Below are positions 1,178 through 62,206 of a stretch of 64,000 bases of DNA, piece after piece; positions within the stretch are counted from its first letter, which is position 1, and each line of letters opens with the position of its first letter. This stretch comes from an uncultured Verrucomicrobiae bacterium (GTDB lineage Bacteria > Verrucomicrobiota > Verrucomicrobiia > Chthoniobacterales > UBA10450). The translations under genes were made by a program, and so were the position numbers. Under the pieces are notes generated by a model that had not been told where the DNA came from, searched no databases, and saw only the letters and a program-made list of their open reading frames with translations. Location: the NCBI GenBank assembly GCA_963801815.1, contig CAWDGJ010000006.1, positions 52,283-116,282 on the forward strand, in the 5' to 3' direction.

Positions 1178-1356
1178 CGGCAGGGCTCATCGCCGGCAAG
1201 CGTCTACTTATTAAAGTCGGTGCTTGGGAACAATCATGCCGCTCCGCGGCAAACTACAAGAGGGTCATATAGATGCACTAGCGGGAGCGTAGATACCGCT
1301 ACAACTGCTTCCGCTTTTGCTTTCCCACGCTACCGTGTTCGGTGATTCCGATTGTT

Positions 1357-3546
1357 ATGGCGGCGGAAATTCAACCAGCAAATCCAGCGCACACGAACCG
1401 GCTCGCGCACGAAAAGTCGCCTTATCTTCTTCAGCACGCCCATAACCCGGTCGATTGGTATCCGTGGGGCGATGAAGCGTTTGAAAAGGCACGCCGCGAA
1501 AACAAACCAATCTTCCTCTCGATCGGATACTCGACTTGTCATTGGTGTCATGTGATGGCGCACGAGTCCTTCGAGGACGAAGAAATCGCGGCGATCATGA
1601 ATCGCGAATTTGTGAACATTAAAGTGGATCGCGAAGAACGGCCGGATGTTGATCGCGTTTATATGACGTTCCTACAGGCGACCACCGGAGGCGGGGGTTG
1701 GCCGATGAGCGTTTGGCTCACACCTGATCTAAAACCGTTCGTGGGCGGAACATATTTTCCGTCGGAAGACCGTTACGGTCAGCCCGCTTTTCGGAAAGTT
1801 TTGGAACGAATCGCAACCGCGTGGAAACAAGACCACGAGAAAATCATCGAGAACGGGACGAAGATTGTTGATGCGCTGCGCGAGTCGCAGTCGTCCGCGG
1901 CAGATACGTCTGTCAAGCTCGACAGCAGCATACTCGAAAAAGCGTACCAGCAACTCGATCGGAGTTACGATCCGCGCGAAGGCGGATTCAGTCCGGCGCC
2001 AAAATTTCCACGACCCGTGGCGCTGAATTTTTTGACTCATTTCTACGCGCGCGATCCAAACAGTGAATCGGGCAAGCACGCGTTGGAGATGGATTTGTTT
2101 ACTTTGCGCAAAATGGCGGCCGGCGGAATTCACGATCATGTCGGTGGCGGATTTCATCGTTACTCGGTTGATCGTTACTGGCACGTGCCGCATTTCGAGA
2201 AAATGCTTTACGATCAGGCGCAGCTTGCAATTGCCTACGTCGACGCGTTTCAAATCACCCAAGATCGACAATACGCAGACGTGGCGCGCGACATTTTGGA
2301 TTACGTCGCGCGGGACATGACTTCAAAAGACGGCGGGTTCTTTTCCGCAGAGGATGCCGATAGTGCAGAGGTAGGGTCATCGCGCGGCGATGACCACGGT
2401 CGGCGCAGTGCGGCGACGCTACCAAAGAAAGAAGGCGCGTTCTATGTTTGGACGGAGAAGGAGATCGACGACGCGCTTGGCGCCGATTCGGCAGTTTTCA
2501 AATATCGTTACGGCGTCCAGCCGCACGGCAACGCGCCAGAAGGCAGTGATCCGCAGGATGAATTTCGGGGCAAAAATATTTTGATTCAGCGGCACACAAT
2601 CGCTGAAACGGCCAACCATTCCAAAAAGAGTGAGGACGACGTTCGACAATTGCTTGCCCGAAGCTGCGCGAAATTATTCGCAATCCGCAACCAGCGGCCA
2701 CGTCCGCATTTGGATGACAAAATCATTTCGGCGTGGAACGGCTTGATGATTTCCGCCTACTCACGTGCCGCACAGGTTTTGGATGAGCCGCGTTATCTCG
2801 AGGCTGCGAACCGCTCGGCAGAATTTCTGCGCGCGAACCTTTACGGTGACAAACTTCTTTTCCGTAATTTTCGCGAAGGCCGCGGAACGGTTGAAGGTTT
2901 CGCCGATGATTACGCGTTCGTCATTCAAGGACTGCTGGATCTCTACGAAGCGTCATTCGATGTCGAATGGTTGAAGTTCGCTATCGCGTTGCAAGCAACT
3001 CAGGACCGTCTGTTCTTCGACGAAAATCGCGGCGGCTATTTCAGCACCAGTGGCAAAGACAAGAGCGTTGTATTGCGAATGAAAGACGACAATGACAGCG
3101 CTGAGCCGGCCGCGAGTTCGGTCGCGGCGTTGAACTTGCTGCGATTGGCGCAATTTCGCGGCGACAAGAATTTCCAAGACCGTGCGCGGAAGACGCTCGA
3201 AGCCTTTACGCCGGCGGTGAATCATTTTGCCAGCGCCATGCCGCAATTGTTGGTGGCATTTGAGTTTAGTTCGAGCAAACCGCTCCAGATCGTGATCGCC
3301 GGCAAGATTAACGACGAACAAACAAGAGCGCTCCTCAACGAAGTGCATCGCCATTTCTCGCCAAACCAAGCCCTAATTCTCGCCGATGGCGGCGAAGGTC
3401 AGAAGTTCCTCGGCGAAAAGAACGAAGCGATCCGCGCCATGTCACCGGTTGATGGCAAACCCGCCGCTTATGTCTGTGAGAATTTCACCTGCAAAACGCC
3501 AGTGACTGATATCAAGGCTTTGAACGCGCTGCTATCGCGTGAATAA
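1357..3546 (+). CDS. thioredoxin-domain protein, DUF255/YyaL (SPATA20-like) family
   Basis: About 730-aa ORF. N-terminal [13 protein letters not shown]...[11 protein letters not shown] thioredoxin-like motif, followed by a long alpha-helical (six-hairpin-like) region. ATG at 1357; an in-frame GTG at 1342 is also possible. Confidence 0.85.
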
Positions 3547-5360: not shown

Positions 5361-6733
5361 TGAAGTCCAATATTCTTCTGATCATGTGCGACCAACTTCG
5401 AGCCGACGCACTCGGTTGCACCGGCGGTTGGGTGAAAACTCCAAACATCGATCGAATCGCGCGCGAAGGGATGCGGTTCACAAATTGCGTGACGAATGCG
5501 CCGGTTTGTTTGCCAGCGCGTATCTCGATGGCCACCGGACGTTATCCGCACAACACCGGGGTCTGGGATAATTGCCCGTACGAGTTGCCCGAGGGCACGC
5601 CAACCTGGATGTCGGCGATCCGCAACGCCGGTTATCGAACGAGCGTGTTTGGAAAAACCGCGCTTCACCGCGGCGGCCCCGATCTGCGCAAATTTGAATA
5701 CAAACTACATTCCTACGGTTTGGACGATGTCGATGAAATCCGCGGGCCGCACGCGACGGTCGATATCGTCTGTAATATGACCGAACGCTGGAGAAGTCTC
5801 GGTTTGCTCGAAGCGTTTCAGAAAGACATGAAGGAGCGGGGCGGAAAAAATCGGACACTGGCAAGACCATCGACGCTTCCGTTGTCCGAGTACTACGATG
5901 TGTATGTCGGTCAGCGAGCTAAAGATTATCTCCGCAGCTACAAACGATCGCTGCCATGGTTTTGCTGGGTCAGTTTTGCCGGACCGCACGAGCCGTGGGA
6001 CACACCCGAGCCGTTCGCCAGCCTGTATCGGGCGGAAGATATGCCAGAACCGTTCAAGCGCCCGCCAGACAGAAAGCGCGGGCCGACCGGTGAATTGGAT
6101 CGCCGATTTGCCGAAGCGTCACGGGATGGAATTCCGAACGCGAAAGAATTGCGGGCGAGTTATGCGGGAAAGGTTTCACTGATCGACGATCAGGTTGGTC
6201 AGATTCTCAGCGAAATCGAAAGCCGTGAAGAATTGGATCGCACTGTCATACTTTTTACTTCCGACCACGGTGAAATGAATGGCGACTACGATTTGATTCA
6301 TAAATCGAACTTCCTCAACCCCGCGGTGCGTGTTCCGTTCATTATCAGCACGCCGGAGATCAAAAAGTCCTCTCACGCAGGAACGCCCAACGATGCACTG
6401 ATTGAATGGTTCGATGCGGGTCCGACGTTGGCGGACGTTGCCGGCGCGACGCTCAACTATACGCAATTCGCGCGCTCTCTGACTCCAACTCTTGAAAATC
6501 CGAACACTGAGCATCGCAGTTTCGCGATTTCAGAATTACTGAATGAGATCATGTATCTCGATCGGGATTGGAAGCTGATGCTGAATCGGAGACGCGAACC
6601 ATATCGATTGTTCGATGTCAAAAACGATCCACAGGAGATGGAAGATCTGGTTGGCCGGCGCGAGCACGAGTCCCTCGTAAATGAATTGAAGCGCCGAATT
6701 GCCGATCGCTTGAAGGAAACTGGAGGCGCGTGA
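5360..6733 (+). CDS. type I (formylglycine-type) sulfatase without signal peptide
   Basis: CLPARISMATGR matches the signature C-x-P-x-R-x4-T-G-R (Cys codon at 5507). Also has LLIMCDQLRAD near the N-terminus and SDHGE. ATG 5360 overlaps the upstream TGA; ATG 5351 is also possible. Confidence 0.85.
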   Translation: MKSNILLIMCDQLRADALGCTGGWVKTPNIDRIAREGMRFTNCVTNAPVCLPARISMATGRYPHNTGVWDNCPYELPEGTPTWMSAIRNAGYRTSVFGKTALHRGGPDLRKFEYKLHSYGLDDVDEIRGPHATVDIVCNMTERWRSLGLLEAFQKDMKERGGKNRTLARPSTLPLSEYYDVYVGQRAKDYLRSYKRSLPWFCWVSFAGPHEPWDTPEPFASLYRAEDMPEPFKRPPDRKRGPTGELDRRFAEASRDGIPNAKELRASYAGKVSLIDDQVGQILSEIESREELDRTVILFTSDHGEMNGDYDLIHKSNFLNPAVRVPFIISTPEIKKSSHAGTPNDALIEWFDAGPTLADVAGATLNYTQFARSLTPTLENPNTEHRSFAISELLNEIMYLDRDWKLMLNRRREPYRLFDVKNDPQEMEDLVGRREHESLVNELKRRIADRLKETGGA

Positions 6734-11870: not shown

Positions 11871-12050
11871 TAGTTTGTAGCTGCGGCGCTCTATGACTGT
11901 CGCATTATTGTCAGGTTCTGCTTTGCTCGATCTCCAGATCGAAAATTTCACCGATGAACGGGCCAATCCCTCCATTTCTGTAAAAAAATCGGAAGGGTTG
12001 CGAACGTTTCATCGAGTCTACGAAGTCGGTCGGGCATGGAATCCATCATG

Positions 12051-12075
12051 CGGCGGTCATAGACCGCCGCTACAG
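12051..12075 (-). repeat. REP-like unit (CTGTAG + cggcggtc-tat-gaccgccg hairpin) overlapping the GT4 stop codon
   Basis: 8-bp stem with a TAT loop, as at 19-44. It encodes the last 6 codons (LCSGGL) and the TGA of the GT4 gene. Confidence 0.6.
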
Positions 12076-13268
12076 AGTTGGATGGCGCGTTCGTAAGCGC
12101 CTAACAAACGCATCCGGTAATGGTCCCACGTGAAATTCTCTACCACCCGCTGCCGCGCGGCTGCCCCCATGCTCGCGGCAATCTCGGGATGTCGATACAG
12201 GTGCTCGAGTGCCGTCGAGATGGCATCGACATCTCCAGGTTGAATGATGATTCCTTCCACGCCGTCGCGCACGACGTCGCCCGCTTCCCGCGTCGTGATC
12301 ATCGGCAATCCGCACGCCGCCGATTCATAAATCGTTTTCGCGCTGCCCTCGAGTCGCGATGGAAAAACATAGACCGATCCCTGGTTCAGATAATTCTCGA
12401 GATCGCGCTTGAAACCGAGAACGCGAATATTGTCGCGCCAAAATTTCTTCAGGTATGGTTTGGCTTCGTCATGGACGCTGCCAAGCAGCCAGAGCTCCGC
12501 ATCGCGCAGGTTCAATCTGTGCCAGGCTTCGAGCAAATGATGAATTCCTTTGCGCTCAATCAACGCGCCGGAAAAAATGGCGCGAAAAATTGGCGGCCGC
12601 GCGCCGGGCTGAAATCTTTCGGTATCAACACCGCGCGGTAGATAGAAGAGTTTTTCATCCGGAAAGTTTGCGGCACGAAACGATTCGGCGGCCTTTTCTG
12701 AAAGAACGACCACCAGGGTTGCGAGATCGTATTCTTCCAGAAACCTTTCCCGCTCCAGCAACAAGCGCGATTTCCACCTTCCTCTGACCTGTGACCTGTG
12801 ACCTGTGATCTCTGATGTTTGTCCTCTGACCTCTGTCCTCTGGCTTCCTCGATGCCAGGTGGGGATTTCGATCAGCGATGGGATGTTCCTCCTTTTTGCG
12901 ACTCGCAGCGTTTTCAGGCAATCTCCTGACCAACTGTGAAAAAAGTCATAGCGACCGGTTTCCAGGTGACGGGACGCAATCCAGTCGAGGTATTTTTTCT
13001 TCGCTCCATAATAATAAGGGCGTCCGACAAACGAGATCAGCCGGACCGGATGCCAGCGAAGCGATTGGATGAATTGCGCTGGGATTTCTTTCTGGCGATT
13101 GTCGTAGGCGACGGCTTTTCCGAGAAACTTTCCACGATAAGACGCGCGCAAAGCTTCAAAGGAATCGGTATCAAGCCCGTGGCCGCCGATTCGCGCGAAA
13201 ATCGAGTAGAGCAAACTCTTTGGCAAGATACGGGGTGTGCCGACGGTGCCTGGTTGTTTTTGTGTCAT
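12057..13268 (-). CDS. glycosyltransferase family 4
   Basis: C-terminal GT-B motifs (VFPSRLEGSAKTIYESAACGLPMITT). Preferred start is ATG 13268 (MTQKQPG); the upstream extension to 13322 lies inside a repeat element. Confidence 0.75.
   Translation of the reverse strand: MTQKQPGTVGTPRILPKSLLYSIFARIGGHGLDTDSFEALRASYRGKFLGKAVAYDNRQKEIPAQFIQSLRWHPVRLISFVGRPYYYGAKKKYLDWIASRHLETGRYDFFHSWSGDCLKTLRVAKRRNIPSLIEIPTWHRGSQRTEVRGQTSEITGHRSQVRGRWKSRLLLERERFLEEYDLATLVVVLSEKAAESFRAANFPDEKLFYLPRGVDTERFQPGARPPIFRAIFSGALIERKGIHHLLEAWHRLNLRDAELWLLGSVHDEAKPYLKKFWRDNIRVLGFKRDLENYLNQGSVYVFPSRLEGSAKTIYESAACGLPMITTREAGDVVRDGVEGIIIQPGDVDAISTALEHLYRHPEIAASMGAAARQRVVENFTWDHYRMRLLGAYERAIQLCSGGL
12779..12850. repeat. heptamer word-repeat tract inside the GT4 CDS
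   Basis: cctctgac ctgtgac ctgtgac ctgtgat ctctgat...cctctgacctctgtcctctgg. Translated in frame as SQRTEVRGQTSEITGHRSQVRGR. Confidence 0.7.
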
Positions 13269-13373
13269 GTCGAGCGGAGTCGAGACATCTCTCATTATTT
13301 CTGAATCCTGAGTCATTTTCACCCCGATTTGGTCTGAAATATTCAGAGATTCCTCGACTTCGCTCGGAATGAC
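13264..13373. mobile_element. MITE/REP-like element: 29-nt imperfect inverted repeats about 52 nt apart
   Basis: Left arm is gtcatgtcgagcggagtcgagacatctct. The reverse complement of the right arm is gtcattccgagcgaagtcgaggaatctct (24/29 match). Lies in the divergent GT4/GT4 intergenic region. Confidence 0.65.
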
Positions 13374-16006: not shown

Positions 16007-16031
16007 TTGTAGGGCAACCGCTCCGGTTGCC
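16007..16031 (+). repeat. REP-like unit (TTGTAG + ggcaaccg-ctc-cggttgcc)
   Basis: 8-bp stem and 3-nt loop directly after TTGTAG. Lies in the divergent HAD/lepA intergenic region. Confidence 0.6.
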
Positions 16032-16186
16032 GTGTTTCAGGTTCACCATCGATCGTGTCTACCTCTACTTCCACCTCTCACGCTTAGCCTGGAAAGATGG
16101 ACGAAGATGAACAGTAGGCGGAGAGGAACATTGCCTGCGTGCGGTCGTTGACCGCCTTGCCACCGCACCAGCATAGTGCGGCTTTC

Positions 16187-24392: not shown

Positions 24393-24912
24393 TTACCGAT
24401 TAATGAAATATTGAAACGACATTACCCGTCCGTCGGAAAACGTGACCGTCTTGTACGGATAGTAGATCGTCGGCGGAATGTAAGAGTAGTAAAACGGGTC
24501 GTAGAAGGGATCGCCAAAGAACCGGAACCGGCCACCATGATGAAAACGGACAACTCCGACGCCGAATCCACCGTAACCCCACGGGCCCGGGCCGTAGCCG
24601 TAGCCATAAGGTTCGTAGCCGTAGCCGTAGCCGTAGGCGGTGGTGCCGGCGAGATAAATCCAGGTCTCGGTCTGGTGTCCGCGCATTTCGCCGGCCACTT
24701 TCTGCTCAGGCGAACCCCACGCCAGCCAGACTGCGTTCGTCGACATGCCCGAACGGACCTGTCCCTGACGCACCAATGCTTGATCGCGAGCTGACAGAGA
24801 ATTGAACATGTCGGGGTTTTCGGGAAATTCGATTCTCCAGCGTCTCGCAGCTCGTTAGGCAGAGTCCGACAGCAGCCAAACCTAACCACAACGTCTTGGA
24901 AATTGTCTTCAT
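24393..24912 (-). pseudogene. lipoprotein (SmpA/OmlA-like segment plus Tyr/Gly-rich region), frame-disrupted near 24825
   Basis: The signal/lipobox MKTISKTLWLGLAAVGLCLTSC is in one frame. ENPDMFNSLSARDQALVRQGQVRSGMSTNAVWLAWGSPE is in the next. An extra C in a C-run joins them. Confidence 0.65.
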
Positions 24913-24997
24913 AAAAAAGGATACAACCGGCGCACGGTCAGTCAATTGTCCCGGCTTGTTGATTGAACACGGCATCGCCGATAACGTTGCGATTGAA

Positions 24998-26044
24998 ATG
25001 GAAGATCGTTACGGCCATCGCATCTCCTATCTGCGCGTCTCGATTACGGACCGTTGCAATGAGCGCTGCAACTATTGCATGCCGCGCGAACTTCAGGAAT
25101 GGTTGCCGCGCGAGGAAATTCTCAGCTACGAGGAGACTCTGCGCCTCATTCGGATCGCGGCCGATCTCGGAGTCACCAAAATCCGCGTGACCGGTGGCGA
25201 ACCTCTGACTCGCCGTGACGTTGTCGATTTCATTCGTGAGATTCCAAAGATTCCAAAGATCTCGAGTCTCGGAATCTCCACGAACGGAACTTTGCTTGCG
25301 CACAAAGTGGATTGTAGCCCGCGGCCTGCGGGCGACGCGCGCGCTTCGCGCAGCAAAGCGGCTGCTACGATGGCAGCCGCGCTCCGCGAGGCCGGCGTCC
25401 AATCGGTGAACATCTCACTCGATACTTTGGATCCGCATCTTTACGCGCAAATCACAGGACGCGATTTTCACTCGCAAGTCTTGGAAGGCATCGATGCTGC
25501 GATTACGGCCGGATTCGATCAAATTAAACTGAACTCGGTGCTGATGCGTGGGCGAAACGACGATCAGCTTATTCCGCTCATTGAGTTTGCGGCGGAGCGC
25601 AATTTGATTCTGCGTTTCATCGAGTTGATGCCGGTGAGCACTACCGAGGTCTTGAACGACGAAAATTTTTTGCCAGTTGCCGAGGCCAAACGCGCGATCG
25701 AATCGCGTTACGGCCCGTTGATTCCCGAGCAGTCTTTTCGAACAAATGGTCCCGCGACGTATTACCAAATCCCGGGACGCAATCAGCGCGTCGGATTTAT
25801 CGGTGCGATGACGAACCTGCATTTTTGCGAGAGCTGCAACAAACTGCGACTCACCTGCGACGGAAAACTCCGTCCCTGTCTCGGCAGCTACCTCGAGTTC
25901 GACATCATGAAGCCACTTCGTGCTGGCGCGAGTGATGATGAGCTGCGGCAGTTCTTTAGTGACGTTGTCGATCGCAAGCCCGAGCAGCACGATTTTCGCA
26001 ACAATTATCAGCCGGACCGCAAGATGATCGCCATCGGCGGATGA
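24998..26044 (+). CDS. moaA: GTP 3',8-cyclase MoaA (radical SAM)
   Basis: CNERCNYC (CxxxCxxC), GGEPL, TNG and the C-terminal CxxC...C cluster. Start at MEDRYGHRISYLRVS. Confidence 0.9.
   Translation: MEDRYGHRISYLRVSITDRCNERCNYCMPRELQEWLPREEILSYEETLRLIRIAADLGVTKIRVTGGEPLTRRDVVDFIREIPKIPKISSLGISTNGTLLAHKVDCSPRPAGDARASRSKAAATMAAALREAGVQSVNISLDTLDPHLYAQITGRDFHSQVLEGIDAAITAGFDQIKLNSVLMRGRNDDQLIPLIEFAAERNLILRFIELMPVSTTEVLNDENFLPVAEAKRAIESRYGPLIPEQSFRTNGPATYYQIPGRNQRVGFIGAMTNLHFCESCNKLRLTCDGKLRPCLGSYLEFDIMKPLRAGASDDELRQFFSDVVDRKPEQHDFRNNYQPDRKMIAIGG
25312..25370. repeat. REPIN-like inverted pair of GTAG-hairpin units inside the moaA CDS
   Basis: ttGTAGcccgc-ggcct-gcgggc ... gcagc-aaagcg-gctgCTACga. 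Translated in frame as DCSPRPAGDARASRSKAAAT. Confidence 0.65.
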
Positions 26045-26050
26045 AGGAAA

Positions 26051-26075
26051 GTGACAAGTGGCGGGTGACAAGTGA
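26051..26075. repeat. GTGACAAGTG direct word repeat (moaA-moaC spacer)
   Basis: gtgacaagtg gcgg gtgacaagtga. Related GTGAC-core heptamers occur at 12790 and 51290. Confidence 0.6.
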
Positions 26076-26081
26076 GAGGCA

Positions 26082-26537
26082 ATGAAGCGACTAACTCATC
26101 TCGATGACGAGGGCAGGGCGCAAATGGTCGATGTATCGGCGAAGCCGATGAGTGCGCGGACTGCCATCGCCAAAGGCAAGATCAGACTTCAACGCAAGAC
26201 GCTTGATCTGATTTCGAAAGATCAAATCGCGAAAGGAAATGTGTTTGCAACCGCGCGTCTCGCCGGAATTCAGGCCGCCAAACAAACGGCGAACCTCATT
26301 CCGCTTTGTCACACGCTGCCACTGGGCGACGTGAAGATCGACATCATCGCCGCACGGGACTGCGCTGAGGTGACGTGCACGACGCGGACAATCGCCCAGA
26401 CCGGCGTCGAGATGGAGGCGCTAACCGGAGTCTCGCTCGCGTTGCTGACGATTTACGACATGTGCAAAGCCGTCGACAAAAAAATGAAGATCGCCGATGT
26501 GCGGCTAATTAAGAAGACGAAGACTCGGAATCGCTGA
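26082..26537 (+). CDS. moaC: cyclic pyranopterin monophosphate synthase MoaC
   Basis: 151 aa. LTHLDDEGRAQMVDVS, LIPLCH and a size typical of MoaC. Follows moaA. Confidence 0.9.
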   Translation: MKRLTHLDDEGRAQMVDVSAKPMSARTAIAKGKIRLQRKTLDLISKDQIAKGNVFATARLAGIQAAKQTANLIPLCHTLPLGDVKIDIIAARDCAEVTCTTRTIAQTGVEMEALTGVSLALLTIYDMCKAVDKKMKIADVRLIKKTKTRNR

Positions 26538-27090: not shown

Positions 27091-27232
27091 AAATTCGAAA
27101 AACTCGAATTTCGAAGTCCGAAACAATTTCAAAAATCGAAGATTCGAATTGAAGTTGTTCGCCTTTTTGATTTTCCAGATTCGTGCTTGTTTCGAGTTTC
27201 GATATTCGACATTCGAATTTGAGAATCAATCG
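27090..27232. repeat. intergenic palindromic word-repeat element, same family as 17990-18126
   Basis: gaaattcgaaaaactcgaatttcgaag... faces attcgtgcttgtttcgagtttcgatattcgacattcgaat. Sits between two convergent genes. Confidence 0.7.
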
Positions 27233-54621: not shown

Positions 54622-54687
54622 TTGTAGGGGCGTTTGTGTCAAACGCCCAATTAAATAAACAGGCGCTTGGCACAAGCGCCTCTACAA
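54622..54687. repeat. REPIN-like doublet: two inverted GTAG + 9-bp-stem hairpin units
   Basis: ttGTAG-gggcgtttg-tgt-caaacgccc ...12 nt... aggcgcttg-gca-caagcgcct-CTACaa. Confidence 0.8.
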
Positions 54688-54689
54688 CT

Positions 54690-55689
54690 TCAAAAAATCA
54701 GGCGCGTTTTCCCGCTGCCACGTTCGATTCGGCCGATCCTTTTCGCGCGCAAAATCGAAATTGCCCATTTCGCGTCGCGTTCGGCGACGATTACGACCAT
54801 GCCGATGCCCATGTTGAACACCTGAAACATTTCGGCGCGATCGATCTTTCCGTTCTGCTGCAGTACCTGGAAGATGCGCGGGAACACGCCACGATTTCGT
54901 TTCGATTCTGGCGTCGCAATTTTTCGGCAGGACACGCGGCAAGTTGTCGATCAAACCGCCGCCAGTGATGTGGGCAAGACCCTTGATCATTCCGCCGGGT
55001 GCTTTCGCGAGCAGCGGCTGATAATTTTTGTGCACGCGCAACAGTTCTTTCCCGATCTTACGCGGACTCAATCGCATCTTTTCGAACAGAATTTTTCGCG
55101 CGAGCGAATAGCCGTTGGTGTGCAGGCCATTCGAGGGAAGGCCGAGAATTACGTCGCCGGGTTTGATTCTGCGGCCGTCGATCATCTTCGAACGATCGAC
55201 CACGCCGACGATGCAACCGGCGAGATCGTATTCGCCTTTGCGATACATTCCTGGCATTTGCGCGGTTTCGCCGCCGATCAACGCGCATTTCGCCGCGCGG
55301 CAGGCGCTTGAGAATCCGCGAAGCAGTTGGTCGAACACGCGCGGCTCGAGTTTTTCGCAACCGATGTAATCGAGAAAAAACAGCGGCCGCGCGCCGAGAA
55401 CGGCGATGTCGTTGACGCAATGATTCACCAGATCTGCGCCGACGGTGTCGTGTTTGTTCAGCGCGAACGCGATTTTCAATTTCGTGCCGACGCCGTCGAT
55501 GCTTGCGACCAGGACCGGATCACGCATTCCGGGGAAATTTGCGCGAAACAAACCGCCGAACCCGCCGATCTTGCCGAGCACTTGCGGCCCGTGCGTTCGT
55601 TTGACGAGCGACTGGATGCGGCGCTTGAGCCGATTGCCGAGATCGACATCGACGCCGGCGCGGGCGTAAGCTTTTTTCCGTTTTGTCAT
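54690..55689 (-). pseudogene. purM: phosphoribosylformylglycinamidine cyclo-ligase PurM, frame-disrupted near 54880
   Basis: MTKRKKAYARAGVDVD, GGFGGLF, DGVGTK and GGETA. The C-terminus IFQVLQQNGKIDRAEMFQVFNMGIGM is in the next frame. The length of 1000 nt fits one extra base. Confidence 0.9.
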
Positions 55690-55692
55690 TTG

Positions 55693-55728
55693 CTGTAGGG
55701 CGAAGCTGTCAGCTTCCCGATCGGGAAG
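55693..55728 (+). repeat. GTAG + overlapping palindromes in the purF-purM spacer
   Basis: ctGTAGggc-gaagct-gtc-agcttc and cttcccgatcgggaag. Confidence 0.5.
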
Positions 55729-58193: not shown

Positions 58194-60554
58194 TTACAAA
58201 CTCGGAATACCTTCCGCGCAGGAGTCGCTTTCGACGAGGCGGCGGATCGAGTTCCACCAATCGTCGTAAAGATCGGCAATCGGCCATGCAAATTTTTGTT
58301 CCCCGACTTCGATGCGCAGTTGGTCGCCGCCGACTTCACCGAGTCGCTGAAACGGAACGCCCGCGTTTTCCAACATCGAGATCGCCTTTTCGAAATTGTC
58401 CGGTGCCACCGAAATCACGATTCGTGACTGCGATTCGTTGAAGAATGTTGTAGCCACGTCGCTATGCGACGTTTGTTCAGGACGGCCCACAGGGCCGTGG
58501 CTACACTCGATGTCAGCCCCGAGCGGGCCGGCGGGATTGAAACACGATTCCGCGATCGCCACCGCGAGTCCTCCTTCGCTGCAATCGTGTGCGCTCTTTG
58601 TGAAACCAGCGCGAATCAGGTCGCGCACCGCGGTTTGGACCTTAATTTCGTGATCAAGATCGACGCGCGGCGACGGGCCGAGTTTCTTGCCGTGGCAAAC
58701 TTTTAGAAACCGCGAGCCCCCGAGTTCGTCGCCGATTTTGCCGACAAGAATGATTTCGTCGCCGGCATTTTTGAACCATTGCGTCGTGATGTGCGCTTCT
58801 TTCTGGATCAGTCCAACCATGCCGATGGTCGGGGTAGGGTCGACCACGCCGGCGGGGCTCTCATTATATAGAGAGACGTTTCCCCCGGTCACCGGTGTCT
58901 CGAACGCCCGACAGGCCTCGGCCGCGCCTTCGACCGCTTCGCGCAGCTGCCAGAAGTTTTCCGGCTTGTAGGGATTGCCGAAGTTCAGGTTGTCGGTCAC
59001 AGCGAGTGGTATTGCGCCGGAACAGATGAGATTTCGCGCCGCTTCCGCGACTGCGATCTTCGCGCCTTCGCGCGGATCCAGCGCGCAGTAGAGCGAATTG
59101 CAATCGCTCGTCGCCGCCAAAATCTTGTTGGCGTATTTCACGTGAAACACAGCGGCGTCGGAGCCCGGCTTCACCACAGTGCCGGTGCGAACGGTGTGAT
59201 CGTACTGCCGATAAACCCAGTTCTTCGACGCGATGTTCGGATCACGGAGAAGTTGTCGCATCGCTTCCTGATTGTCGATCTTCGGCAACGTTACCGGATC
59301 GACAATGTCTCGACGTGAAGGTGGTTCGACTTCGCGCGAATAGAGTGGCGCTTCGTCCGCCAGCGGTTTCGCCGGAATTTCCGCGGCCACGCTCCCATTG
59401 TTGCGCACGCGCATCATGCCGTCATCGGTCACGCGACCGATCTCCGCCCATGGCACGTCCCATTTGTCGAAAATTTCGCGAACGATTTTTTCTTTTCCGC
59501 GCTTGGCGATGATCAACATCCGCTCCTGCGATTCGCTGAGCAGAATCTCGTACGGCGTCATGCCCGGTTCGCGTTTCGGAACTTTCGCGAGATCGATTTC
59601 GATTCCGCTGCCGCCACGGCTCGCCGTTTCACAGGTTGAGCAGGTCAGACCGGCCGCGCCCATGTCTTGAATTCCGGCAACTGCGTCGCTGGCCAGGAGT
59701 TCGAGGCACGCTTCGAGCAAAAGCTTTTCCTTGAACGGATCGCCTACTTGGACCGCGGGCCGATCTTCCTTCGATTCCTCGGTCAGCTCTCGCGACGCGA
59801 ATGCCGCGCCGGCGAGACCGTCGCGACCGGTTTCCGCGCCGACGTAGAAAACGGGATTGCCCACTCCGCGGGCAGCGCCGCGTGCGAGTTGATCGTGTCG
59901 CAGCACCCCGAGACAGAAAACATTCACCAGAGGATTGCCCTCAAAACTTTCATCGAAATAGATTTCGCCACCGATCGTCGGAATGCCGATGCAGTTTCCG
60001 TAATGGGCGATGCCCGAAACGACGCCCGCGAAAAGGCGCCTGTTGGCGGCGATTTGTTTTTGTCGATCTTCTGTGGCGGCAGGCGTCTCGCCTGCGCAGC
60101 CGGGACGGCTGCCTCCACAGTCTTCTGCTATCAGTCCAAACCGTAGCGAGTTGAGACAAAACTCGGGGCGCGCGCCCATTGTGAAAATGTCGCGAATGAT
60201 TCCGCCGACTCCGGTCGCCGCCCCTTGGAAGGGTTCGATCGCGCTCGGGTGATTGTGGCTTTCCATCTTGAACGCGATCGCCCAGCCATCACCAATATCG
60301 ACCACGCCGGCGTTTTCCTCGCCGGCTTTCACCAGAATGTTCGGCCCGGTAGTTGGAAATTTTTTCAGCTCCAGCCGTGAATTTTTGTAGGAGCAATGCT
60401 CACTCCACATCACCGAGAAAATTCCCAACTCAGTGAAATTCGGCTCCCGGCCCAGGATTTTCTTGATCCGCTCGAATTCTTCCGGCGTCAGGCCGTGTTT
60501 CGCCACCAGCTCCGGGGTTATTTTAGGATCGGTGGTCGGTGTGGCCTTGGTCAT
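58194..60554 (-). CDS. purL: phosphoribosylformylglycinamidine synthase subunit PurL
   Basis: 786 aa. SEHCSYK, ESHNHPS and GGNVSLYNE motifs. Intact frame. Confidence 0.9.
60071..60120. repeat. palindromic two-hairpin element inside the purL CDS, flanked by TCTTCTG
   Basis: ctgtggcg-gcaggcg-tct-cgcctgc-gcagccg-gga-cggctgc-ctccacag. TCTTCTG occurs at 60067-60073 and 60121-60127. Confidence 0.7.
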
Positions 60555-61488: not shown

Positions 61489-61514
61489 ATGAAACGCGTC
61501 CTCCGAATGCGCTC

Positions 61515-61608
61515 GCGTAGGTGGATCGAGCGCTCCGCCGCTCGATGTTAAAAAAATGTCGGCGTAGCCGAGTAACATTAACATCGCCCGCGGAGCGGCC
61601 GATCCACC
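61515..61608. repeat. left nested-palindrome repeat flanking the RAYT gene
   Basis: gcGTAGgtggatcgagcgctccgccgctcgatgttaaaaaaatgtcggcgtagccgagtaacattaacatcgcccgcggag...cgatccacc. About 90% identical to 62097-62175. Confidence 0.85.
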
Positions 61609-62102
61609 TTGCCGCGCGCTGATGATTACTTCACAGTCGTTGCAGTGCTGTATCGCGGGTTCCCCTCTAAGCTTTACCACGAAGTGCCCAGTTGGGTGGA
61701 CGATGGGGCACTGTTCCATATTCGGATCGCGCTTGATCGAAATCTTGAGCAAGAACAGCTAACTGAACCGGCGGTTGGAAAACCAATTCTCGAGTCGGCG
61801 ATATTCTATCACCGAAACGAGCGATGGTTTATTACGCTATTCCTGTTAATGCCAGATCACTTGCACGCGCTCCTGTCATTCAGCAAGGATCGAGACATGA
61901 GCCGATCGGCGATTGGAAACATTTTCAAACGCATGAGAACGGAGTGCAGTGGCAGGAAGGATATTTCGATCATCGGCTGCGCGACGACGAAAGAGGCGAG
62001 CAGTTTTCCATGAAGATGGACTACATTCGTGCTAATCCCGTTGCAGCCGGTTTATGTGCTAATTCCGAAGACTGGCCGTGGGTAATCGAGTCGCTTGCGT
62101 AG
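61609..62102 (+). pseudogene. REP-associated tyrosine transposase (RAYT, IS200/IS605-like Y1 HUH), frame-disrupted near 61905
   Basis: Frame 1 holds ...WFITLFLLMPDHLHALLSF (HUH = HLH). Frame 3 holds IGDWKHF...WQEGYFDHRLRDDE...DYIRANPVAAGL (Tyr motif). Confidence 0.8.
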
Positions 62103-62206
62103 GTGGATCGAGCGCTCCGCCGCTCGATGGTGAAAATGTCGGCGTAGCCGAGTAACATTAACATCGCCCGCGGAGGTGCGAGCCGCACTGGCAGTTCCGA
62201 TCCACC
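62097..62206. repeat. right nested-palindrome repeat flanking the RAYT gene
   Basis: Same sequence as the left copy with a 17-nt longer tail before cgatccacc. Its GTAG supplies the RAYT stop codon. Confidence 0.85.

Follow-up and report, generated by a model that had tools for sequence, protein, structure and literature searches.

GTAG-tagged families of repetitive extragenic palindromes (REPs) were defined by Di Nocera, De Gregorio and Rocco in 2013 (BMC Genomics 14:522; PMC3733652). Intragenic dimers of such REPs are reported there to be most numerous in Opitutus terrae, where they encode 20-30 amino acids; the purL gene of this bacterium carries two of them, and in its GTAG-20 family the GTAG has mutated to GTGG. 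The paper also describes genes for REP-associated tyrosine transposases (RAYTs) flanked by GTAG repeats, states that GTAG ends often give neighbouring open reading frames (ORFs) a TAG stop codon, and classes RPE-4 and RPE-6, two of the Rickettsia palindromic elements (RPEs), among the intragenic CGTC repeats of Rickettsia conorii and not among GTAG repeats. The E. coli transposase TnpA_REP recognises the GTAG at the hairpin foot base-specifically, and A3 and G4 guide the cut to the junction of C and T (Messing et al. 2012, PMC3479197). Here we describe a REP doublet forming hairpins (REPIN) that lies in frame within moaA, the gene for GTP 3',8-cyclase, of an uncultured Verrucomicrobiae bacterium (Chthoniobacterales; UBA10450). 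The window, i.e., the whole stretch of DNA that was analysed, comprises 64,000 nt (contig CAWDGJ010000006.1, positions 52,283-116,282, assembly GCA_963801815.1).

Our reading is that positions 25313-25369 of the window are a GTAG-type REPIN, non-autonomous and presumably mobilised by a RAYT, that was trapped in frame in a permissive loop of moaA. We put the probability of this identity and history at roughly 0.8, and that of the enzymology lower. The doublet belongs to a family that occurs in soil Chthoniobacterales. The canonical 54-nt element of this family, TGTAGCC-GTCGCCC-tgy-GGGCGAC-GCGCGC-GCTTCGC-aca-GCGAAGC-GGCTACA, consists of two 7-bp stems, each with a 3-nt loop, around GCGCGC. The host gene and the parts of the element are the following.

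24998-26044, plus strand: moaA (GTP 3',8-cyclase), the host gene, with its ATG at 24998 and the Pfam domains Radical_SAM and Mob_synth_C
25313-25369, plus strand: inserted REP doublet (REPIN-like), 57 nt, decayed, read as CSPRPAGDARASRSKAAAT; matches the canonical 54-nt element
25313-25336, plus strand: left REP, TGTAGCC followed by CGCGGCC-tgc-GGGCGAC; the 5' arm of the family stem GTCGCCC/GGGCGAC carries mutations
25337-25342, plus strand: central spacer GCGCGC, the same as in the short 54-nt form
25343-25369, minus strand: right REP, inverted, GCTTCGC-gca-GCAAAGC followed by GGC(TGC)TACG

The DNA reads GAT TGTAGCC CGCGGCC TGC GGGCGAC GCGCGC GCTTCGC GCA GCAAAGC GGCTGCTAC G ATG and is open in frame between the STNG and N-I-S-L-D motifs of MoaA (translation D-CSPRPAGDARASRSKAAAT-M). 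The ends of the insert, TGTAGCC at 25313-25319 and GCTAC at 25364-25368, still have their GTAG (left arm) and CTAC (right arm), and the stems between them have decayed. In the left REP an alternative pairing, GTAGCCCGC/GCGGGCGAC, is still possible, and the right REP is altered by a single mismatch in its stem, an inserted GCT (3 nt) and a terminal A changed to G. In all, 47 of 54 positions (87%) are identical to the canonical element, with seven mismatches plus the GCT insertion, and this decay accounts for a local fold that is weakly better than shuffles (z -2.3). A preliminary description of this DNA, made from its letters alone, had proposed a REPIN-like palindromic doublet in frame within moaA, and the intact ORF with both Pfam domains and the gap in its orthologs bear this out. 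The doublet does lie within the interval 25306-25371 given there, although its bounds are 25313-25369, and the 3' hairpin drawn there, gcagc-aaagcg-gctgc, is not that of the family, whose right hairpin is GCTTCGC-gca-GCAAAGC with one mismatch (25343-25359). A scan of 24800-26100 against Rfam with E values up to 1 matched no RNA family. An intein, an intron, a CRISPR and a tandem-repeat expansion were each considered and rejected on the length of 57 nt, the REP ends and the match to a dispersed family.

The nearest precedent is O. terrae. The two cases (PMC3733652 and the present one) share the phylum Verrucomicrobiota, terminal GTAG next to a stem of 6-9 bp, and in-frame head-to-head or tail-to-tail dimers that encode about 16-30 residues of known proteins; two purL dimers and the change of GTAG to GTGG likewise occur both there and here, and RAYT genes flanked by GTAG repeats in O. 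terrae have a putative counterpart here. The order differs (here Chthoniobacterales, represented by Udaeobacter-like soil metagenome-assembled genomes), as do the stem sequences, and the peptide is CSRRPVGDARASHSEAAT here compared with VAGVADPGTGL... and VGPALAAG... in O. terrae. The host gene differs as well, since moaA was not found among the hosts in the supplementary table of PMC3733652. Thus, intragenic GTAG REP dimers are already known, and the moaA case repeats nearly all of their features in another order, with other stems and in another host gene.

Comparison with related genes shows that the moaA segment is a real insertion. MoaA was compared with its best 120 protein clusters (82-100% identical to the query, from Chthoniobacterales), and the locus with 78 species-representative Chthoniobacterales loci that have a readable STNG...N(I/V)SLD segment. 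This segment is 49 amino acids long in the window, compared with 33-34 in 76 of the 78 loci and in 112 of the 120 clusters, which is a net gain of 45-48 nt, i.e., 15-16 codons, relative to close orthologs; these align with a clean gap at the site, as had been expected. The figure of about 22 extra codons given in the preliminary description holds against MoaA of the S. aureus or E. coli type but not against close orthologs. S. aureus MoaA (1TV7) has five residues opposite the 27 residues 102-128 of the query, and of the residues by which the protein exceeds S. aureus and E. coli MoaA, 6-7 are shared throughout the clade. No insert is present in P0003 (locus L084), the closest ortholog; outside the loop its protein is 93% identical and its DNA 92.5% identical on both sides, and the synonymous divergence (dS) between window moaA and this empty sister is 0.31. 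The gene is a clean example of loop gain through repeat insertion, with the ancestral state surviving in a sister lineage.

A homologous insert occupies the same junction of moaA in two other assemblies, with a length of 54 nt in locus L081 and 72 nt in L082; the window insert differs from that of L081 at seven aligned positions and by a 3-nt indel (~87% identity). The window itself contains 13 GTAG...CTAC pairs, four of which fold as two adjacent hairpins; this goes beyond chance, as none of 200 dinucleotide-preserving shuffles gave such a doublet. It could be argued that an ordinary loop expansion by slippage or duplication, or a misassembly, produced the segment and that its palindromes are incidental, and the frameshifts that purM and the RAYT gene appear to have in this assembly, together with the modest z-score of the local fold, would fit such an account. 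The presence of homologous inserts in three independent assemblies disfavours an assembly artefact, however, and the 87% identity to a dispersed element, the open frame, the canonical TGTAGCC and GCTAC ends and the absence of any doublet from 200 dinucleotide-preserving shuffles speak equally against this account, which we consider already refuted.

The host gene looks functional. The CxxxCxxC motif and the C-terminal three-cysteine cluster are intact in the insert-bearing protein, as had been claimed, and so is the terminal GG; C20, C24, C27, C277, C280, C294 and G347-G348 are invariant in our alignment of 29 sequences (A1). The ratio dN/dS between the filled window gene and the empty ortholog L084 is 0.06, i.e., moaA is under purifying selection, and moaC and a MoCF_biosynth gene follow moaA in syntenic loci. 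It is on these grounds (the cysteines, the GG, dN/dS and synteny) that we regard the gene as probably functional. An AlphaFold (AF2) model of the insert-bearing MoaA, built from A1, has a mean predicted local distance difference test score (pLDDT) of 73, and its best match in the PDB is S. aureus MoaA, 1TV7_A, with template modelling (TM) scores of 0.73/0.78. The insert site is the beta3-to-alpha3 connection of the MoaA barrel, just past the TNG strand. In the model, residues 103-122 have no secondary structure and pLDDT is below 50 at residues 110-119, in agreement with the suspicion that the insert occupies a loop; if translated, the insert would be a tolerated disordered loop.

The family of the moaA insert, whose arm sequence is TGTAGCCGTCGCCC, is dispersed. 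A scan of metagenome contigs with the 26-nt left arm as query (23 specified bases) returned at least 120 stretches, all from soil-type samples, with 94 distinct copies among the matches listed, to which the following counts refer. Copies are both intergenic and intragenic, and the refuting outcome foreseen in the preliminary description, that no related copies would be found elsewhere, did not occur. Lengths have modes at 53-55 nt and at 78-84 nt, the latter with variable spacers, and the long forms carry 24-30 further bases at the central spacer. The canonical 54-nt form encodes CSRRP(A/V)GDARASHSEAAT and is open in four of six reading frames. Of the 94 distinct copies, 54 have a length divisible by three (modes 54 and 81 nt), as have 34 of 66 copies outside long ORFs; since the copies cannot be counted as independent, these figures are descriptive. 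A crude test for open frames placed 28 of 123 copies in frames of 150 amino acids or more. Hosts confirmed with Pfam are an Lhr-type helicase, Asd, a DUF2064 protein, an N6_N4 DNA methylase and a DR2241/Fer4_23 protein, and their domain envelopes span the insert. In the DNA methylase the same site is filled with different lengths (81 nt in L162, 54 nt in L202), and the same holds for one site of the DR2241/Fer4_23 protein in L126, L158, L179, L194 and L196.

Homologous copies are also found in purL of L086 and L087. The L086 copy is ~93% identical to that in L082 moaA over 72 nt, spacer included, and their right stems differ by a compensatory change (GCTTCGC/GCGAAGC versus GCGTCGC/GCGACGC). 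In the PurL ortholog of another organism, the peptide CSRRPVGDANATPARSASHSDAAT matches the L082 MoaA insert in 23 of 24 residues. The ends of the family are sharply defined: among 93 distinct copies listed, TGTAGCC directly follows a C in 68% and a T in 29%, and a G comes directly after GGCTACA in 83%. With C at -1 and G at +1, CT adjoins GTAG on both strands. No target-site duplication was found among these 93 copies, in which direct repeats of 2-5 nt occur at the flanks only at chance frequency, and their flanks hold no wider target motif beyond the C at -1 and the G at +1.

The family thus has GTAG at the hairpin foot, an inverted doublet with a short spacer and many dispersed copies. REPs are named for an extragenic location, whereas the moaA copy is intragenic and in frame; this does not set it apart from them, since intragenic GTAG REPs are documented (PMC3733652). 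The REPIN-RAYT systems of Pseudomonas and Enterobacteria (Bertels and Rainey 2011, PMC3116915; PMC3479197) resemble this family in their inverted REPs with a short spacer, the 5' GTAG by a hairpin, the CT by the element ends that matches cleavage at C^T, the lack of target-site duplications and the repeat-flanked transposase gene, which is putative here. They differ in being overwhelmingly extragenic, whereas four of the five full doublets in our window are intragenic, and many stem subfamilies coexist here; mobility in the present case would follow by analogy. Miniature inverted-repeat transposable elements (MITEs) such as Correia/NEMIS, RUP and ERIC are likewise short, non-autonomous, dispersed and sometimes translated. 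MITEs have terminal inverted repeats of 15-30 bp from DDE-type insertion sequence (IS) elements and make target-site duplications. The moaA-insert family has no such duplication, and its ends are GTAG-plus-hairpin units, so that we do not class it with the MITEs.

The window also contains a putative RAYT gene with GTAG repeats on both sides.

61609-62102, plus strand: putative RAYT gene split over two frames, with the HUH motif MPDHLHALL and the tyrosine motif MDYIRANP
61510-61595, plus strand: left flanking repeat of the RAYT gene, containing cGTAGGTGGATCGAGCG-ctccgc-CGCTCGAT and gGTAGCCGAG
62092-62175, plus strand: right flank of the same gene, a repeat with 93-100% identity to that on the left

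The flanks are direct repeats of ~85 nt (D1/D2) with GTAG-hairpin units. Each of the two half-ORFs of the gene matches the RAYT profile NF047646 of NCBIfam, and the fused frames score 68.1 bits, against a curated cut-off of 80 bits, while covering positions 9-145 of 146; Pfam, in which PF01797 is the counterpart of this profile, gave no match to the two half-ORFs. The gene has more than 1000 homologs, the best 120 of which are single ORFs of 150-238 amino acids with 60-80% identity, many of them named RayT or carrying PF01797, and one from Chthoniobacterales. Relative to P0241, 1 or 4 nt are missing at ~61905-61910. Either the gene is a pseudogene or the assembly contains indel errors; purM is also apparently frameshifted in the same window. 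The left flank also forms a 30-nt inverted repeat, I1 (61509-61538 / 61590-61619).

The best link found between the moaA-insert family and a transposase is on another metagenome contig. At 1156-1734 of L098, on the minus strand, lies a RAYT-like gene with the HUH motif MPDHVHLFV and the stretch WQRGFFDH...NYVRENPVRAGF. A doublet of the moaA-insert family is located on its 5' side, and directly past its stop codon are TGTAGCCGCTTCGC-tgt-GCGAAGC, which is the other arm of the family, and then a decayed partner.

How might the element have entered moaA? By analogy with E. coli TnpA_REP, it was probably mobilised as single-stranded DNA by a RAYT, a Y1 HUH enzyme, which would recognise the 5' GTAG plus hairpin and cut at C^T. 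The element would then have landed in the loop after strand beta3 (TNG motif) of the MoaA radical-SAM barrel, replacing about 6-12 nt, and would have survived there because its length is a multiple of three, its frame is open and its 15-16 extra residues form a tolerated disordered loop. The present copy may thus be selfish DNA fossilised as a peptide loop, with no function of its own shown. Its distance of ~13% from the consensus fits neutral decay over roughly half of the dS of 0.31.

Several observations weigh against this account. No sibling of the moaA-insert subfamily lies within the 64-kb window at up to three mismatches. The window RAYT is apparently frameshifted and its flanking repeats are of another stem type than the moaA insert, and the RAYT-like gene of L098 reads through only with two -1 frame shifts; hence no intact RAYT is tied directly to the family. 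The insert site lies on what we take, from the known architecture, to be the catalytic (C-terminal) rim of the barrel, so that an effect on catalysis is possible and the neutrality of the loop is an assumption. Finally, target bases were lost in both clean pairs of filled and empty genes, which simple insertion of the IS200/IS605 type does not predict: in window moaA 9-12 nt of the target were replaced by 57 nt, and in L083, compared with its nearest relative, the empty L085 (96.9% protein identity, dS 0.19), 14 nt were replaced by 83 nt.

The same two replacements, and the lack of a target-site duplication, would be explained if the doublet had been captured during break repair, as filler DNA or through a template switch at a stalled fork, with loss of some target bases. 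Random capture would leave ragged ends, whereas the sharp ends C-TGTAGCC...GGCTACA-G, present in 68-83% of the 93 contexts listed, argue for precise cleavage at CT. Moreover, the replaced bases may reflect a later in-frame adjustment or earlier variation in loop length, as in P0052, whose loop shrank. We therefore regard break-repair capture as improbable and favour mobilisation by a RAYT.

Besides the moaA insert and the RAYT flanks, the window contains further doublets and single REPs.

2371-2422, plus strand: in-frame doublet in a thioredoxin-domain (DUF255/YyaL-like) ORF at 1342-3546; 17-residue peptide
58449-58505, minus strand: in-frame doublet in purL (58194-60554); 19-residue peptide in the same C-S...A-T reading frame as the moaA insert
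60071-60120, minus strand: a further in-frame purL doublet, whose ends TGTGG...CCACA have GTGG in place of GTAG; 16-residue peptide
54622-54687, no strand assigned: extragenic doublet of another stem subfamily, fold z -5.5, between purM and a downstream minus-strand gene
16008-16033, plus strand: single extragenic REP, TGTAGGGCAACCG-ctc-CGGTTGCC; the same subtype occurs in L006
12050-12074, minus strand: single REP at the end of the ORF 12057-13322, GCGGCGGTC-ata-GACCGCCGCTACA; the subtype also occurs in L039, L066 and L002
55694-55718, plus strand: single REP, TGTAGGGCGAAGCT-gtc-AGCTTCCC, ending 3 nt upstream of the purM start (minus-strand reading)
19-43: single REP, clipped by the window edge

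Among tetramers on the 5' side of hairpins in the window, TGTA and GTAG show the strongest enrichment (3.4-3.9-fold, p ~6e-6), and TGTAGSS occurs 16 times where 8.05 occurrences are expected. The doublet at 2371-2422 coincides exactly with a 19-residue gap in the PDB homolog 7TKV. PurL was compared with 120 orthologs of 756-818 amino acids, many of which lack the doublet at 60071-60120 while others have different doublet peptides there. At each of its two hot spots, about half of the clusters carry a doublet-type peptide; these peptides belong to at least five families per site, and families found at one site recur at the other. Stem subtypes of the single REPs at 19-43, 12050-12074, 16008-16033 and 55694-55718 recur in L002, L006, L039, L059 and L066.

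The extragenic doublet at 54622-54687, to which the moaA insert had been likened in architecture, is a real doublet but belongs to a different stem subfamily. The minus-strand gene downstream of it has an N-terminus that may be read as aldo/keto-reductase-like. On its other side, purM (~55691 to 54692, minus strand) has an apparent +1 frameshift at ~54,880, between ...KSWRVP and ...RIFQVLQQNGKIDRAEMFQVFNMGIGMV, and is either a pseudogene or affected by indel errors of the assembly. Its true stop is a TGA at ~54692-54694, a few bases ahead of the doublet. The idea that the doublet supplies a TAG stop to purM was rejected since the ORF in question is a frameshifted reading. An A+T-rich inverted repeat of 40 nt, 70% complementary and with its arms 26 nt apart, is located just downstream of the MoCF_biosynth gene (27104-27209) and is unlike the GTAG units.

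The moaA loop has received such elements repeatedly. Within the same 20-30 nt there are at least three unrelated doublets: type A in the window, L081 and L082, type B in L083 and type C in L045. The L083 copy (5579-5746) is a 79-nt doublet with a sequence unrelated to type A and in another codon phase (ACT GTA GCC...GCT ACA), and the L045 copy (824-961), GCCGAGGTC-ggg-GACCTCGG ... CCGCGGTC-agc-GACCGCGG, represents a third doublet type, also in another codon phase than type A; the L083 and L045 doublets have their 5' junction in common. The CCGCGGTC-agc-GACCGCGG subtype returns in the linker of dnaX (DNA polymerase III gamma/tau; minus strand), where in-frame doublets occupy the same position in L070 (15904-15978) and L080 (5989-6060), with the shared hairpin at opposite ends of the doublet. 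The loops that have been recolonised are thus the moaA beta3-alpha3 connection, two sites in purL, the dnaX linker, and one site each in the DNA methylase and the DR2241-type protein. In the passages of the O. terrae study consulted (PMC3733652), no mention is made of one loop being occupied by different elements in different lineages. The same moaA loop also holds a conserved insert of 9-10 residues, GI[DG][IT]LPMG.AL.AHA, with no GTAG ends, in P0011, P0014 and P0036 (compare L016, 7280-7408), which may be a fully decayed element, and in P0052 it has an 11-residue deletion.

One possibility is that insertion is targeted, either because the element or its transposase aims at certain sequences or structures, or because a resident REP serves as a landing pad and draws replacement by other REP types. 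The recurrence of unrelated doublets in moaA, with types B and C sharing their 5' junction, would be accounted for in this way, as would the junction shared by type-A carriers at dS 1.4-1.6, with nearly alike inserts in the window and L081, and the two purL hot spots with at least five peptide families each that are shared between the sites. REPs are, moreover, known as insertion targets of IS elements, according to the title of PMC1525189. On the other hand, no conserved flank motif extends past -1/+1 among the 93 distinct copies listed, host genes are diverse, and the hot spots are loops and linkers, where selection lets any insertion persist. Targeting is therefore possible, but we doubt it. 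The recurrent use of loops is the part of this work that most deserves follow-up, and it may reflect either targeting or tolerance alone.

The three type-A carriers are mutually separated by dS 1.4-1.6 and have their inserts at the same junction, which, given the ~87% identity of the window and L081 inserts, is not what one neutral insertion of great age would leave. The sharing could stem from gains that took place independently at this junction, from recombination patches too short to be detected, or from constraint on the insert, and we lean towards repeated gains. No recombined segment was seen among the carriers, whose 150-nt flanks are no more identical than the rest of the gene, though patches below 100 nt are possible. 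Could the insert have been retained because it is useful? The loop or the intragenic hairpins might serve MoaA activity, partner binding, pausing of translation or transcription, or mRNA stability, and in keeping with this, homologous inserts are kept in three lineages with the frame preserved, 54 of the 94 copies listed have lengths divisible by three, and four of the six frames of the canonical element are open. REPs are also reported to affect mRNA stability and termination (background statements in PMC3479197 and PMC3733652). Yet the nearest relative does without the insert, the hairpins of the window copy are decaying (z -2.3, seven mismatches and an indel), the peptide varies freely between carriers and is predicted to be disordered, and wholly different sequences fill the same site in other lineages. 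Exaptation is thus very unlikely, and we continue to view the insert as a mobile REPIN trapped in a permissive loop.

The insert also invites comparison with the RPEs (Ogata et al. 2000, Science). RPEs are longer than the present element, RPE-1 being ~100-150 bp. Both are selfish palindromic DNA in frame in housekeeping genes, tolerated as an extra peptide compatible with the fold. RPE hosts are obligate intracellular Alphaproteobacteria, and RPEs are not known to be linked to RAYTs; by description, the moaA-insert family is further set apart by GTAG in place of the CGTC of the repeats among which PMC3733652 places RPE-4 and RPE-6, its length of 54-57 nt and its occurrence in Verrucomicrobiota. 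The moaA insert is RPE-like in behaviour and is not classed as an RPE. The analogy with RPEs drawn in the preliminary description is fair as an analogy, but with a closer precedent in O. terrae (PMC3733652) the novelty is less than was implied. What is new is the intragenic density (four of five full doublets), the lengths in multiples of three and the repeated colonisation of the same loops of core enzymes in a dominant soil lineage.

As the moaA insert illustrates, selfish palindromic DNA can persist inside the gene for an essential cofactor without destroying it. Our literature search found no paper linking Udaeobacter with palindromic repeats. The phenomenon is now extended past Opitutus terrae and Rickettsia to uncultured, dominant soil bacteria. 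Udaeobacter-like bacteria are among the most abundant bacteria in soil. For annotation, this means that odd low-complexity loops of 15-30 residues in MoaA, PurL, Asd and helicases of Chthoniobacterales are repeat-derived and should be taken neither as functional motifs nor as alignment signal, and the filled and empty alleles are a natural data set on RAYT-type insertion, target choice and the rate of decay inside genes. It is tempting, though tentative, to suppose that the REPIN families of Chthoniobacterales are specialised residents of coding sequence, whether through target-directed insertion or through replacement of one element by another at landing pads. The suggestion draws on lengths that are multiples of three (54 and 81 nt), on the four of six frames that are open and on the recolonisation of the same loops; we do not think it probable. 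If true, REPINs specialised for coding sequence would be a steady source of new disordered loops in core enzymes, beyond the scale known from the RPEs of Rickettsia.

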